NCBI GenBank assembly: GCA_951406725.2
Contig: OX597819.1
Span: 10,044,001 to 10,108,000 of the forward strand
Source: Octopus vulgaris
Lineage: Eukaryota
DNA: 64,000 bases
Direction of reading: 5' to 3'
In this document: positions 1 through 27,700 of the stretch, one piece after another
Layout of the letters: each line of letters starts with the position of its first letter
Position numbering within the stretch: position 1 is the first letter of the stretch
Position numbers and translations under genes: made by a program
Notes under the pieces: model-generated
Seen by the model: the letters and a program-made list of their open reading frames with translations, nothing else
Told to the model about the DNA's origin: nothing
Database searches by the model: none

Positions 1-530
1 CGCAATACACGGATATTATTTTGAGCTGAGTGGGGGTGCTAGATTCCCTTGTTTGAAAATATAAGGACACAGATCGTGTGGTAGAGTCAAATGGAGACGA
101 TGTCTCCTGGGGCTAAATTACAGCAACACTCGTCCTAAACCAGGACTGCCATGTTATGTTGGCAAATAATCTTTACTCCAAAGAACTGTTGCTGAATATC
201 TCTAGTTGAGAAATTTACAAATAGTAATTTTCTAATTTATAGATCAGTGACTAGTTGTCACTTTGAAAACTACATGTTTCAAACGGGAACTTGGCAGCGC
301 TACCTCTAGCCAAACAATTATTCTGTTTTGATGAAAGGAAATAACCTGGAAATCACAATACACAGGTATTGTTTTGAGCTGAGTGGGGGTGCTAGATTCC
401 CTTGTTCAAAAATATAAGGACACAGATCATGTGGTAGAGCCAGCTGGAGATGATGTCTCTTGGGGCTAAATTACAGCAACACTCATCCTAAACCAGGATT
501 GCCATGTTATGTTGGCAAATAATCTTTACT
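1..530 (+). mobile_element. Retrozyme-like tandem repeat (353-nt period, at least 1.5 copies, runs off the left edge) with a degenerate hammerhead ribozyme
   Basis: 1-177 repeats at 354-530 (offset 353). It shares sequence with 24546-24956 (tgggggt..cccct..aatataaggacacag..gggctaaa) and has a hammerhead-like core at 328-360. Confidence 0.65.
311..375 (+). ncRNA. Degenerate Type I hammerhead ribozyme
   Basis: Core TTGATGA 328-334 (C3U), stem II agg/cct with loop aaataa, GAAA 349-352, stem III atcacaat (cgcaat in the upstream copy), AUA triplet 358-360. Stem I tctgt/acagg is extended by aaacaat/attgttt. Confidence 0.55.
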
Positions 531-1757
531 ACATATAATATCTTATAACTATAGTCAACAAAATCCAGGAGGGAGGAGAAACAATGACAGATTTATAAAC
601 ATATTTGACCTTGAGATATTAACTTTTAAGCAGATTTTAGTATTAAGTAATACACACACACAACTATTATATAGGATTAGTTTAGACACCAGACTACAAT
701 GGTTTGTTTAAGAGAAATCAACTTTATGTTATGGTGAAAAGAAATGCTAAGATATTGGATCTACAAATAGGCACTTTAATAATTACAGGCTAGATTGAAT
801 TTATTTATAAGTGTAATCACAAAATCTACAGCATAAAGCCAAGACATAAATTTTCCCGCTGAACTGGCTACAAGTTTTCTAGTAACATCTTTTACAATAT
901 AACATTAAAAGCAAGTAATACTAATCCATTCTTCTTCTTTTTAATTTGGAATATTGAAATATTTCTGCTAAATGCTTTATTTTTACACACCCTAATCAAT
1001 CAACTTTTTAGCAAAAACTTCAGTTAACTTATCTTAATATATAACTACTTATTTTATGATAGGTAAAACTTTTCTAAACATCTATGTTTGAAGCTTGAAG
1101 CACTGCAGAAAACAGACAACAGTCAAAATTATAACATGTTGAGAATAAAATAAAGATTTTGCTGAGCAGCCAGAGTCAATTCTGCCTTGGCAGACCTCCA
1201 AGGACATAATCCATTAAATACTTTACTTTGTTAAGCTAACCTAATGTTTGGGCTTAAAATATGAAAAGCTCCATTTTAAAGATGGTTAGAATTTATCATG
1301 AGAGAGTCAGCTGCAACAATGAGCATGTTTCATGATTATAGATTCTTAAGTAACATCTTAAATAAAAATGGAAATTGTCAATAGTTGACATATCACTGTA
1401 CAAAACAAACTCTGAAATATAGTTTGGGTACAGTCAGAAGAACTCCTTGGTTTCAAGACCACAGCAATGAAGTTAGTTTCTGTAGTGAAGATGATTTCAT
1501 TAAAGCTAGGAGAAAAAAATGTACATCAAATGTGTAATGATGTTATATGTATTTCCTTCAATAGATGAAAAAAATAAACCTTTTCAAAGAAAAATTTTAA
1601 AGCAGTTTGATATTAAAAAACAAAAATGGTTGGTGGAGATGTAACTATTTTTTGTTGATAATACAATTTATACATATGAGAAACAGTTCAGATATCACCA
1701 GTTAGAGAATTACGAACAAGGGGATTAATTCCGTAGACCATAAGACTACCAGCAGCA

Positions 1758-21700: not shown

Positions 21701-24700
21701 GCCTGTACAAGCAAGGAAAGTGAATGTAAAAACAAATGAGATCACTAAAGATTGCAAATCTTAGAATTTGTAAACTTTGTGCAAGCTATTATTGAGACTC
21801 CCTTATAAGCAAAGAGAATATTGGTAATGTTCTTCTTAAGTATAGTTACTGTTTCGGTGCTGTTGAATCAGACTAAGTTATGTTCCTAATGGAGACTGCC
21901 TTTGAAGGCTTTGTTCAATGACATGAAATAGACCTTGCATAAGAAATGATGCCTAGTATACTCATATTATAGAAAGTGGGAAATTATTACAAGTAATTAA
22001 CTTGCAGAAAAAAAAGTACTTTTCTAGGTATTGACTTTTTTTTTTTTACAATAATTACAGAAAATTCACACAGACAGTCATGAATTTGAAAATGATTAAA
22101 ACACAAACCTCTTCTTTCTGTCTCTTTTTCTCTTCTTTTTTCTTCGCTCTGTCAGTTGTGCTTTCTTTGTGGCGGATTTTCACATGGAACTTGTCCTTCC
22201 AATTGCTACCATCAGTGAGATCTCCATAGTCATCTAAGGTGTCATACTAGGAAAAAAAAAATTCATCATTTGTAAAGATTGAATTTAATTAAAACACTGA
22301 CCAGGCACCTACCCACCACACAAATACTCATATTCCACTACACTACCCTTCATAGTTACTGAACCATGCATATAGTCTATCCAATAGTAATATGTTATAT
22401 GCAGAACTTTTTGTGTGTAAGACAGTGAGAACATCATAAACTACCCATTATTTATTGTAAGAAGCAGTTTCCAACTGATGAAAGATATGAAGAGTATCAA
22501 AAATTGAGAATGTCATTAAAAGAAACAGTAAAACCATTTTTGAAAAGGCATTTCTATAAAGAACAATATTTCTTAAAGATTTAAGAAATTATATTCATTA
22601 TAGGATTTAACTGAACAATGTATTTTGTTGTACATTTCAAAACTCTTATATTACAGCTACCTTACTTAACTTCCATATATTCATCTTCCCCATCCATGGG
22701 GAAAAGAATCCTCAGACACCTGCTCCATGGAGTCCTATCAGAAGCAGCCATCATTACACTTGTTCCAGTTGGCTTCCCAAGCGTGACCAACTACGGATAT
22801 TATCCAACCATCTTACTCTTGACCTATCCCCAGGTCTCCTGCTACTGTCTTGCAGTTCTTTCCTATGACATTCTAACTCATGTCCATAGTATGAAGACTG
22901 TGGGAGTTCAGCTTTCTGCCAGCCTCTCCTGAGGATTGAACACTAGAGCTGACACATCACTGTGCCAGCACATGTCATTTTAGCAGCCAACTCAGCCTTC
23001 TCCTTCACACCATTCATGAATATGTATCTGAGATACTTAAAACTTTCCCACTTGTCTCAGTGGTGTTCCACAAACACTCAGAGTTGCACTGGGAAGACTT
23101 TCTGGAGCAGATCCTTGTCACAGTCTTTGCAACACTAATTCCCGTTCCTGCCTTGCAGCATTTGGCAGAAAACCCATTCAATACATGCTGGAGATTACCC
23201 TCTGATGAGCCAAGTAACACCAATGTTGTCTGGAATAGCAGCCAACTGATCTTACACCCACCAAGTGTGAAAGCACAAACATTATGGAAAGGAGACACCG
23301 ACAACTTGTATCCCTGTTGAAATCTAACACCTACATTGAAAGGTTTTGACCTAGCACCATTTACCAGAACACGAACATCCTAATTTTTAAAAAGGGAGGC
23401 AAAAGGGAATTTAAGATTAATAGACAACTTCTGGTTGCTGTGAAGTCCCTATACAAATGCCATACTAAACTTAATATCTGTAATTTTGTGTCCCAAAGCT
23501 ATTCATGTCTATACTGTTGTACATTAGAAATATTGTCGGGCAGCAGCAGGAAGGTTTATCATCACAATTTAATTTTTTTTATAATTAAAAATCACCTCTG
23601 TCCATAGTTGTAAGGTGGTGGTTGATTTAACAGCCCTGTGATGAAAGGCATTCAAGTCATGGCAATCTTGCTTTTGTTGAAAGTATATTGAATACATACT
23701 CTTTTTACTCTCTTTTACTTGTTTCAGTCATTTGACTGCGGCCATGCTGGAGCACCGACTTTAGTCAAGCAAATCGACCCTGGGACTTATTCTTTGGAAG
23801 CCCAGTACTTATTCTATCGGTCTCTTTTGCCGAACCGCTAAGTGACAGGGACATAAACACACCAGCATTGGTTGTCAAGCAATGCTAGGGGGACAAACAA
23901 GACACACACACACACACATACATATATATATATACATATATACGACAGGCTTCTTTCAGTTTCCGTCTACCAAATCCACTCACAAAGCATTGGTCGGCCT
24001 GGGGCTATAGCAGAAGACACTTGCCTAAGATGCCACGCACTGGGACTGAACCCGGAACCATGTGGTTGGTTAGCAAGCTACTTACCACACAGCCACTCCT
24101 GCGCCTACATAACTACATTACTATGGATACATATCTAATTCCCACTTTTAAGATGGTAAGGTGTGATTTGAGCATAATTTAGCTGCTACTTCAAGCTAGT
24201 TGAGTGACTGCATAGTCCACTCCTTTGGTTCATAGTTGAATGGGTTAAATGTATTCTATTGGCCATACAATGGTGTATTCGAGACCAAAATGATGCTAAC
24301 ATAGGTGAATGGATGAGAAAACAAAAAGCAGAATTCATAGAAAATTATTTTACCAAGGAATACCCTTTAACATTCAACACTTTCATATACCATGAATAGC
24401 AGAGAAAACTGTACAACAGTAGTGGTGGTGGTAATAGAGGTACTGATTTTGTTAAATAGTTATGTTAAATTTTTGACACAGTGTCAGATTTCAAGTTTGA
24501 ACTATACAAAGTTTGGAGGGTCTTTGCTATAAAATTATACTAAAACACCCCCTACTGTCACGTTCGTGTTAGATTGACAGTATACAACCATTCTATCGCC
24601 CCACCACTGTACATGTCTCTACGAGAGATTTAGAAATTTAGCATTTCTGATTTTGATAATCAGTGAATAGACTTCACTGAAATTTAGATATATACATTAT

Positions 24701-27700
24701 GAGTCGAGACAGATGTCGTCAGCTGACCGGTGTCTGCTACTCTAGGCCGACGAAGGACAATCATCCTGAAACACGTGTCCCTGGATGCAGCCTGGGCAAC
24801 TGGGGGTATTTATCTCCCCTTCGTAAATGTATATAAGGACACAGGAAAAATGTGTCAAAGCCGTCAGGAGGCGTCGATGCTTCCTAGGGCTAAACAGTGG
24901 TGGTGTACCTCCTACTGTCACGTTCGTGTTAGATTGACAGTATACAACCATTCTATACTAAAAGGACTCTCAAAAATTAAAAACACATCTGCCTTTTAAT
25001 TATTTTGAGTCCTCAGCAGATTGTGAGGCCCCAAGCTGTGGCATGACTGGCTTATCCCTGCATGCACAACCTAATTAGAGAGAGAGAGGAATATTATGGA
25101 GTTCACCAATTCTAAATGAATAAGACACCTAGACATAACTACTGAGGATTCTCAGTAATATTAGGTGAGTTTTTCAGGTATATTTATATTCTAAGGCAAA
25201 ACATATGTACGCACACATGTATATATACACATGTTAGTTGTTGTTGGTTTAATTTATGAAATAATGTTAATTTTTACCTTTGAAAGTGTACCTTGATTGT
25301 AGTCATCTAAGGGACAAATTGTTTCATATAAATTTTCTTCATAGCGATCTGTAAAAAGTAACATTCCATTACAGAATTTATTATCAGGGTCAAGATTTAT
25401 ATAATTTATAAGCAATAGTAAGATGAACAAAAAAAAAAAAAAAAAAACAATTTATGTATGTGTATGTTTGTGTGAGAAAATATATCTTTAAATGCAAGTG
25501 TGCATAATTATGTATCATGACACAGTTATTGTTAAAAGCCTACGTATAAACTTGCTTTTTGAAAGGAATAGGCTACTGTGGATTAAGCCAATCAAATGAT
25601 CTAATTGACACTTTTATAAAACTTTAAAATACAACATTAGTGTAAAGTGAACTTAAGGTAAAATGAAGTAGCGAAGTAGATGCCATAACGTATCTAGTGT
25701 TGCCATAGGTTGTTTTCCTTAACACCAACAAACAATGTTGACTTAACATTTAAAGCAGCTATATCAGGCCAAAACATTCTGTCTGTTTTATGCCCAAACT
25801 GGTTTGATCCAGCCTTTCACACCTACCCTACAATGTCATTCTAAAAAGAAACAATCACATCATTGAAATCTTGAAGCTATGAGATAATGCATGATTAATT
25901 CAAAACAATGTGAATAAATAAGCATTATATCTGACAGAGTAATCTCAATGCTAAAAAGTTTAAAATGTTGAGAGAGTGAGTGAGAAGTTCTGCACAAACT
26001 CATTACAATAGAGAGTAATTTAAGTGTCATTTAAGAGTGAATTGGTTTGCTGAGGATTTCTTAGATAGTCATAACAGGCAAACTAATCAACTGCTTTTAC
26101 CAGTACTTCTAAAATTGGTAGGCATACATAAACAGTAGGTTAGATATCTCTAAAAGACTATGAGGAGTAGAATTTAAAGAAATGGATATAGTTAACTATT
26201 TAATTGAACAAATAATCCACAACAGCTGATGTTATTAAACTAAATAGTTCTAAGTGAAAACAGATCATTATATGCTAGCCATACTGAAATTGAAGAGGTC
26301 ACTGGCAATAACAAATGTTTTCTGATTTCAGTTTAGCAATTCTAAATCCATTTTTTAATGTTACAATGTGTTGGGTATTTTCCATTCAGGGAAGTAAATT
26401 GTTTTAAGAGCTGAATGCCCTTCCTATTGCCAACCGCTCAACCAAGCTGTCAGGCAAACTGAATCACCAGAATTATGTGTTTTATCTATGACTAGGGAAC
26501 AGAAGTGGAGGCGCAATGGCCCAGTGGTTAGGGCAGCGGACTCGCGGTTGTAGGATCGCGGTTTCGATTCCCAGACCGGGCGTTGTGAGTGTTTATTGAG
26601 CGAAAACACCTAAAGCTCCACGAGGCTCCGGCAGGGGATGGTGGTGATCCCTGCTGTACTTTTTCACCACAATTTTCTCTCATTCTTACTTCCTGTTTCT
26701 GTTGTACATGTATTTCAAAGGGCCGGCCTTGTCACTCTCTGTGTCACGCTGAATATCCCCGAGAACTACGTTAAGGGTACACGTGTCTGTGGAGTGCTCA
26801 GCCATTTACACATTAATTTCACGAGCAGGCTGTTCCGTTGATTTGGATCAACCGGAACCCTCATCGTCGTAACCGACGGAGTGCTTCCACCACTAGGGAA
26901 CAGAATACTTGACAGCACAGTTATTACATTTGAAAATATACATTAGCTATGTGTTGCTGGCATACAAACAAAATTCATAAGTTGATATATATTTTTAGAG
27001 ATGTTTACTTTAAAGCAATGTAAAGAGTATCTTTATTAGATTGACAATAAAACATGTGCGTTAATATTGTTAGTACTACATATTATGAATATAATTACGA
27101 AATTAGCTTTTTAAGAAACAAGAATTAATTTACACAATTTAGAAATGTAAAAACAAAACAAATGGAACCTGGATAAAAACAATGCATAAGTCAAACAAAG
27201 CAGAACAAAAGTAGTAGAAAGGCTCAGCTCGGCAACAAAATGAACAAGAAGCAAAAACAATAAAGATATTTCCCAACAGTAAATAGAAGCCCCCAATGAA
27301 GGAATATCAAGAAAAAAAAAATGATAAATTAAGAAGAAACATGCAATTTGCAGCAATATACCAACAGTGGCTAACTGTAAAGCAAATGGCTGAAAGAAAA
27401 AGCATGAGGTAATGCTAATGATTAAATTCAATCACAGGAAGGATGTTTTGAAACATTAATATACTATTATAGCATGTGAGATAATGCTTGATATCTGCTT
27501 CAACAATAAATACTAGGGAGGGGGAGAAGAAACACTGACTGTCTGACTGTAACAAAAAAAAAAACACCAAAAAAAAAAAGCATGCCATTTAATGGCCAAG
27601 CTAAAAAAAAATACTAATATTAAAATGCAATTTTTTTTTACTTTGGAAACTATTGTTAATATTATTTTTCCTAAATTAGGATCAAAATAAAATTAAGACT

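Follow-up and report, generated by a model that had tools for sequence, protein, structure and literature searches.

A hammerhead retrozyme family of Octopus vulgaris with Penelope-like insertion marks and a candidate snRNA-type promoter

Metazoan retrozymes without long terminal repeats (non-LTR retrozymes) have been described as tandemly repeated, non-coding units of 150–450 bp with a type I hammerhead, a GC content below 50%, target-site duplications (TSDs) longer than 4 bp, and Penelope-like elements (PLEs) alongside; they include a mussel family of 350–400 nt, and cephalopods are unmentioned in the main text of that account (Cervera & de la Pena 2020; PMC7229834). The 410-nt insertion analyzed here is located at 24547..24956 of a 64,000-nt stretch of Octopus vulgaris DNA (“the window”; assembly GCA_951406725.2, contig OX597819.1, positions 10,044,001 to 10,108,000; features are on the forward strand unless stated). 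It belongs to a family that shares these features but differs in occurring mostly as dispersed arms (at most 3.4 units), in its fixed non-canonical catalytic core, and in its marks of a PLE acting at two sites. The retrozymes of Li, Clavereau & Pollet (2026) are likewise dispersed monomers with a proposed PLE dependence, although the evidence in the sections of that work cited here consists of co-occurrence and homology to PLE pseudo-LTRs (pLTRs) in 35 genomes without molluscs (10.64898/2026.07.22.740005), whereas the octopus evidence is insertion anatomy and the unit has no pLTR homolog. The Poseidon PLE of Anolis resembles the octopus family in that both strands are cut and extended, targets are AT-rich, two reverse transcriptase (RT) starts surround an optional tail, and a hammerhead lies upstream; however, Poseidon is autonomous, its tail measures 30–40 nt compared with 55 nt here, and pairing of one site per strand is unreported in the sections of that paper drawn on here (PMC11167929). 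Retrozyme entry into animal genomes has so far been argued from co-occurrence, and the present family gives insertion-level evidence for Penelope machinery. Taken as a whole, the family is likely a non-autonomous retrozyme that is copied by a PLE RT-endonuclease from a circular RNA, has a small nuclear RNA (snRNA)-type promoter, and is invaded at the transcription start (+1) by a long interspersed nuclear element (LINE).

Insertion anatomy and the copying enzyme

The window copy is a 5'-truncated single copy of a dispersed retrozyme family. It comprises 1.14 units of subfamily A (unit position 1 = 24547, preceded by one additional base at 24546) and departs 11 times in 360 nt from the majority sequence of that subfamily, once in stem I of the hammerhead. 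A preliminary description of the locus had noted an exact 46-bp direct repeat 360 nt apart and a flanking 10-bp duplication, and both were confirmed. The repeat occupies 24551-24596 and 24911-24956 (spacing 360) and lengthens to 50 bp with one mismatch when started at 24547. The window contains two copies of TATACTAAAA, a left (24536..24545) and a right (24954..24963) TSD, the latter sharing its first 3 nt with the final 3 nt of the insertion. The multi-copy retrozyme family proposed in that description was also found: the best 40 of 2645 candidates scored in the 2.8-Gb source genome contain 115 matches, the best full-length copies being 90–95% identical, and a 27-nt family motif has 1430 exact genome matches (control, 0), a number in which tandem and two-arm insertions are counted more than once. 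The family includes subfamilies with 360-, 361-, and 365-nt units, and, as in other retrozymes, there are head-to-tail tandems, here of up to 3.4 units.

The anatomy of insertions was surveyed in 70 loci taken in genome order from the first 100 listed motif matches, leaving 65 loci after removal of five duplicates. Nearly all arm pieces (97 of 108) end at unit positions 40-56 or 92-125, including 34 that end exactly at 50 and 25 exactly at 105, and their 5' ends are scattered, such that arm length varies from about 20 nt to 3.4 units. Position 50 (24596 in the internal copy; 24956 was used by the window insertion) is the short 3' end and putative first RT start; it lies a little downstream of a terminal hairpin (24553..24582) that recurs 360 nt on. 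Position 105 is the long 3' end and putative second start, at the close of a 55-nt optional tail (24597..24651). Tracts of (TA)n adjoin 55 of the 97 canonical ends, and an automatic survey of TSDs among the copies returned mostly microsatellite. The 65 loci include 33 clean inverted two-arm insertions; in 28 of these, one arm ends at 50 and the other at 105, five have one odd end, and none has two ends of the same kind, whereas independent ends would give like-with-like pairing in about half.

The 3' ends that are fixed apart from an optional tail, the varying extent of 5' truncation, the inverted truncated arms, and the AT-rich or (TA)n targets are all traits of PLEs. Initiation at two sites bracketing the tail, with extension of both cut strands, is a biochemical PLE signature (PMC11167929), inverted truncated copies with a tail at one end have been described, and the supplement of the latter study contains (TA)n-targeting PLEs in Octopus (PMC8557442). 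The copying enzyme of this family is thus very probably Penelope-like; although the enzyme is inferred, the fixed ends, inverted arms, and (TA)n support the mobilization by Penelope suggested in the preliminary description. Such a protein would cut both strands of AT-rich DNA, frequently (TA)n, and start cDNA synthesis from fixed positions 50 and 105 of the RNA, each serving one strand. Synthesis would proceed around the template and stop randomly, and the products would be joined, yielding single arms or inverted two-arm insertions. The window copy would be a single arm that began at site 50 and ran 410 nt, its second pass across unit positions 1-50 (24907..24956) stopping at the short initiation site. 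The 46–50-bp overlap, formerly read as terminal redundancy, is real but incidental rather than designed, as the 3' end is fixed and the 5' end is a random truncation. The strict rule of one start site per strand provides a testable prediction for the PLE protein.

Two observations weigh against this interpretation. The partner PLE was not found, as 44 GIY-YIG loci (about 8 families, of 6136 candidates) share no sequence with the unit, the sole homology among them being one nested distant relative. Moreover, divergence between the arms of one insertion is 2.9% compared with 6.2% between insertions (19 insertions), but an arm's own partner ranked first in only 7 of the 19, and the two arms need not come from one molecule. 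Young, intact PLEs with RT and GIY-YIG domains and (TA)n flanks are present in the genome. One such family (locus L061, 930-6172; also L062-L068, L070, and L073) has a 479-aa open reading frame (ORF) 1 and a 781-aa RT+GIY-YIG frame, occurs as many copies of identical length in (TA)n, and carries a 456-nt pLTR, a tail of 40 nt, and a hammerhead-like motif showing the U3-A8 swap; CCAAT/CRE-like boxes recur in its upstream region. Considered as the partner, this 781-aa PLE has the (TA)n target in common with the retrozyme and no sequence in common.

The hammerhead and the RNA template

The Type I hammerhead lies at 24741..24785 with a predicted cut after 24779. Stem I (24741-46 / 24780-85, where a private A>G at 24783 gives a wobble), the core with U4C (24747-53), stem II (24754-67), GAAA (24768-71), the palindromic stem III ACACGTGT (24771-78), and the GUC site (24777-79) are all in place, as described previously for a complete hammerhead; however, stems I and II form in the minimum-energy fold of the window element, whereas stem III and the open core do not; the absence of stem III agrees with a palindromic helix of 2 bp, whose pairing would need a dimer (PMC4209133). 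The fold is nevertheless judged real and conserved in the family from compensatory changes in aligned relatives. The stem covariation called for earlier is present in 9 of 13 pairs, which are altered on both sides across 11 related sequences; 0 of 500 shuffles reach this, a count that is not a probability since the rows are related and hand-picked. Paired cells amount to 95% in the 11 hammerheads and 12–48% in slid controls.

The core pattern has 137 exact genome matches, and among the matches listed 96 of 100 are CCGA (CCGAYGA) and 4 are CTGA, the latter explicable by CpG decay. U4C, noted earlier as a change that may weaken this copy, is therefore the family consensus, which does not restore CUGANGA, and its reading as a private lesion was rejected. 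The canonical CUGANGA/GAAA core is thus absent from this family, although some sister families have it. The Rfam hammerhead models, also suggested as a check, gave no match on 23500-26000 at E <= 10 and no hammerhead match for this 360-365-nt family; one relative (L281) matches HH9 (E 0.0013, under the gathering threshold). The fixed U4C core suggests that whole families escape strict CUGANGA searches. U4C recurs within this genome in further hammerhead-like motifs with a CCGA core (L069 5306, L034 2377, L063 (minus) 1783, L035, L047, and L066), one of which sits downstream of a PLE ORF and has a CTGA relative.

We place the probability that the ribozyme cleaves in this family slightly above even. 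Several points weigh against activity. The core is non-canonical family-wide, the 10.1-11.1 pair is unpaired in 4 of the 11 aligned relatives, and only one of nine Xenopus retrozyme dimers cleaved in vitro in the experiments cited here (10.64898/2026.07.22.740005). U4C is reported to lower in vitro activity considerably, yet to be compatible with viroid infectivity (PMC3088659).

The ends of the arms bear on the template. Arm 5' ends do not accumulate at the predicted cut, as they might with a cut linear RNA: one of 32 entering arms stops in the predicted cut site region (231-237), and one of 20 stops in the region of the predicted +1 (165-176; three cassette-linked arms left out), against a background of 0.0077 per nt. 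Joints in multi-unit arms are seamless, as in L266, whose 2.35 units have 24 shared variants and 0 private ones, and 20 arms have no recurrent difference between first and later units, except for one C>T in four arms. A cluster of 5' ends at unit 194-198 (24740-24744, the start of stem I) was seen in 7 of 30 hammerhead-picked loci; among the position-ordered loci the signal is weak, at 3 of 27 where about 1.4 is expected. Contigs from four runs presumed to be RNA cover the element piecewise and include diverged relatives, but they carry no information on strand, ends, level, or circularity and were not counted as evidence. A circular template, which we consider rather likely, would explain the seamless arms and the absent stops most simply, although the passage of cDNAs through the cut site is explained equally well by an inactive ribozyme. 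The earlier proposal that RT ran around a circle is accordingly retained in part: the template has no end at the cut site, but the length of the overlap carries no meaning, since 5' truncation is random.

The principal alternative keeps the same PLE-mobilized element and promoter but makes the template an uncut linear multimer, formed by tandem read-through or RT jumps, in which the hammerhead is vestigial or structural and the circle unneeded. The family-wide U4C agrees with it, as do PLE experiments in vitro in which the hammerhead was dispensable for insertion and uncut RNA was the main template (PMC11167929), and no stops at the cut site are expected without cutting. Variants common to two inner units only in L263 indicate that tandems can also arise by DNA-level duplication. 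However, if the templates were linear RNAs begun at +1, one promoter would be lost in every generation and 5' ends should accumulate there, but they do not (1 of 20). In addition, no long master array was found among the best 40 of 2062 candidates scored (a lower bound), compensatory changes preserve the stems of the hammerhead, and canonical cores persist in relatives. We regard the linear multimer as unlikely, yet as the alternative that deserves most weight.

With a circular template, rare copies that contain the promoter and two hammerheads would yield a read-through RNA cut at both ribozymes, probably as a dimer via the palindromic stem III and probably slowly owing to U4C, and the cut RNA would close to a 360-365-nt circle. 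The window copy is a dead end, as the promoter motif is present, yet there is one ribozyme, an altered +1, and a weakened 5' hairpin; a single hammerhead should make formation of a unit circle by double cleavage impossible. The hairpin-packed structure reported for the monomer is reproduced: the 406 nt of 24551-24956 fold at -137.5 kcal/mol (z = -5.1; 0 of 100 shuffles equal it), and the hairpins named previously are recovered in this minimum-energy fold. The part from the predicted +1 to the element end (24715-24956) has a z of -1.6 only, and the hammerhead hairpin is lost there in the window copy. The hairpin-rich 3' domain (24786..24910) retains its layout in sister families at ~68-74% identity. 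No ORF of >=100 aa overlaps the insertion, in agreement with the lack of coding capacity noted before, and the unit has no organization of LTR, primer-binding site, and polypurine tract, consistent with the short non-coding unit (150–450 bp) of non-LTR retrozymes.

The candidate promoter and the LINE at its start

The motif ATCAGTG (24659..24665) is a candidate proximal sequence element of a U1/U2-type promoter at -56 from the predicted +1 (24715, within 24713..24728; G here and A in the family), and an AT-rich element near -27 (24687..24695, by eye) resembles that of several U1 genes of the genome. ATCAGT lies at -56 to -58 in 7 of 9 U1 genes, at -59 in both U2-type sites, at -59/-60 in all three sister copies, and at -56/-57 in the window family, with a chance rate of 0.0012 per 5-nt window. 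An independent check of the spacing is provided by the sister family at window 1-531, which one of the LINE-end loci examined below matches and in which ATCAGTG is 59 nt before the junction sequence of that locus. The RNA predicted from +1 begins with the hammerhead-bearing hairpin in both the window family and the LINE-hit sister family. The motif and its spacing make an snRNA-type transcription start at unit position 169 highly plausible; the unit end would hold a U1/U2-type promoter of RNA polymerase II (Pol II), starting around unit 169 at the base of the hammerhead hairpin. Conversely, ATCAGTG is also the 5' arm of a small hairpin, and RNA structure could account for part of its conservation. 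The preliminary reading of the element as a retrozyme-size non-coding repeat stands, but had missed the snRNA-type upstream element and LINE targeting.

A U6-type Pol III promoter/terminator was considered and dropped, as U6 loci lack ATCAGT (0 of 11, several of which are probably pseudogenes). The U6 genes L236, L238, L239, and L241 have an octamer-like motif and a TATA box, and no U1/U2 element. In this genome, the snRNA genes of Pol II and those of Pol III seem to have distinct upstream elements.

The promoter also bears on whether the unit is the pLTR of an unseen autonomous PLE, with the copies as its truncated remnants. Every insertion mark is PLE-like and Xenopus retrozymes are homologous to PLE pLTRs (10.64898/2026.07.22.740005), but units stand head to tail, the inspected autonomous PLEs are CCAAT/TATA-type upstream with no ATCAGT before their hammerheads, and arms in the 65 position-ordered loci lead only to further units, flank, or a LINE-derived cassette. 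We consider this origin, which the preliminary description had named as a refuting possibility (the terminal repeat of a longer autonomous element), improbable.

Some copies of the retrozyme are broken at unit 167-182 by a 1.75-kb cassette that encodes a CCHC ORF1-like protein and ends in a poly(A) signal, with the insertion site duplicated on both sides. The duplicated site in these LINE or ORF1-cassette insertions corresponds to 24713..24728, which is empty in the window copy. Among the 20 best cassette loci (two pairs of which overlap), 17 join the window family at unit 167-182 and two of the remaining three adjoin a sister family. The cassette protein had no homologs at E <= 0.001 in a set of 8000 candidates similar in length, but it shares 26% identity with the ORF1 protein of a 5.4-kb LINE. 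This LINE has CCHC (ORF1), APE, RT, and zf-RVT domains, an arrangement (CCHC ORF1 and APE-RT-zinc finger ORF2) that places it in the L1/Tx1 group only; its closest named protein is from Argonauta hians.

The same LINE is located at +1 of a complete U2 gene (L234, Rfam 184.5 bits), where the duplication spans the initial 14 nt of U2 together with 3 nt upstream of it, and at the start of the sister hammerhead family. Copies at U2, sister, and window-family targets share 94-99% identity in the 5' region of ORF2, and ATCAGT is found 56-60 nt upstream of every LINE target whose upstream DNA was inspected. LINE 3' ends were matched at 66 places (control, 2); judged by eye from the letters that follow, they enter U2 (5), retrozyme-like starts (37), two other repeats (8), or unassigned sequence (16), so that 42 of the 66 lie at U2 or retrozyme-like starts. 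Twelve LINE-end loci were examined: six are clear sister families with hammerheads or homology (five distinct), two have degenerate hammerhead-like starts, one is truncated, and three are unrelated.

From these junctions, it is fairly likely that the LINE targets +1 by position. The LINE and its ORF1-only derivative would insert at +1 of retrozyme promoters, as at U2, thereby gaining a promoter. If true, it would be unusual for an APE-type element to locate snRNA-type starts in dissimilar sequences, and LINE junctions would show where the transcripts of non-coding RNA families begin. Counting against such targeting, 24 of the 66 LINE 3' ends are in other sequences, and a loose preference of the nuclease may underlie the short A-Y-Y start that the targets have in common. 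Because 3' transduction or spread as composites (L179) may have carried over some junctions, the matches overstate the number of independent events, although the variety of targets still needs several.

That ORF1 cassettes and LINE are segments of one modular Terminon-like element, linked when RT jumps at a short terminal repeat common to them, is very improbable: arrays L175 and L194 do mix units, ORF1 cassettes, and LINE 5' parts joined at one motif, and L179 suggests that a PLE-type arm copied part of a cassette, but the LINE is also found at +1 of the complete U2 gene (14 nt duplicated) and at unrelated +1 sequences, its ORF2 is APE-RT rather than PLE RT, and the cassette is missing from most family copies.

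Targeting of +1 by the LINE may be one part of a three-tier system, to which we give an even chance. It would comprise snRNA-promoter hammerhead circles in many families, a dimeric Penelope enzyme that primes one strand per RNA site, and a LINE homing by position to SNAPc-type +1 sites, at U2 and every retrozyme family, with an ORF1-only derivative sometimes hitch-hiking.

Both ORF1-only cassettes (period about 1.8 kb) and full LINEs (about 5.4-5.7 kb) are also found repeated head to tail in arrays, at C4:27.05-27.07 Mb, C4:70.04-70.05 Mb, C4:97.905-97.910 Mb, C2:73.05-73.07 Mb, and C3:20.79-20.83 Mb, the C3 arrays standing at U2-type starts. A further divergent, broken PLE-like RT frame (L194 7107-9638, minus strand) lies beside a cassette array. 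Six LINE 3' ends (L272, L282, and four more) enter one AT-rich repeat without an Rfam family or hammerhead, which may be another small-RNA gene or repeat.

More distant families keep the unit layout. The sister retrozyme at window 1-531 extends upstream in L270 (798-1534) with a 353-nt period and consists of an inverted arm and a 1.7-unit arm, with ATCAGTG at 243 and a hammerhead core at 328; the core is canonical in its upstream unit. A third and a fourth hammerhead family (L255-L262) have 278 exact motif matches, compensatory stems, and one canonical core, and also bear ORF1 cassettes just past +1. An abundant ~400-bp SINE-like repeat at window 23710-24101 and about a dozen other sites is unrelated to the retrozyme.

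Relation to known systems

On structural grounds, the element is a variant of the non-LTR retrozymes, with their features present except for the canonical core. Position-based targeting is known at Pol III genes for TRE5-A of Dictyostelium and Ty3 of yeast, and ORF1-only elements are known as HAL1. No cephalopod retrozyme and no LINE at the +1 of retrozymes was found described in the open-access literature (without Repbase and without the supplements of PMC7229834 and 10.64898/2026.07.22.740005), and a position-targeting LINE parasite of retrozymes is seemingly undescribed. A cephalopod retrozyme by itself is a modest gain; more unexpected to a specialist might be the strict pairing of the two sites and a LINE directed at +1.

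For the promoter, the nearest likeness is newt satellite 2, a hammerhead repeat driven by an snRNA-type Pol II promoter, although it is an amphibian tandem satellite whose promoter was shown experimentally, while the octopus promoter is inferred from motif, spacing, and LINE junctions (cited in PMC2220036). For the LINE, the Tx1-clade elements Keno (U2), Tx1L (Tx1D), and Tx1-Mar are likewise APE-type and prefer multicopy targets, including U2 and transposons. However, these elements are described as sequence-specific (PMC4494074, PMC4640811), whereas the octopus LINE uses dissimilar sequences that share a +1 position behind an upstream element.

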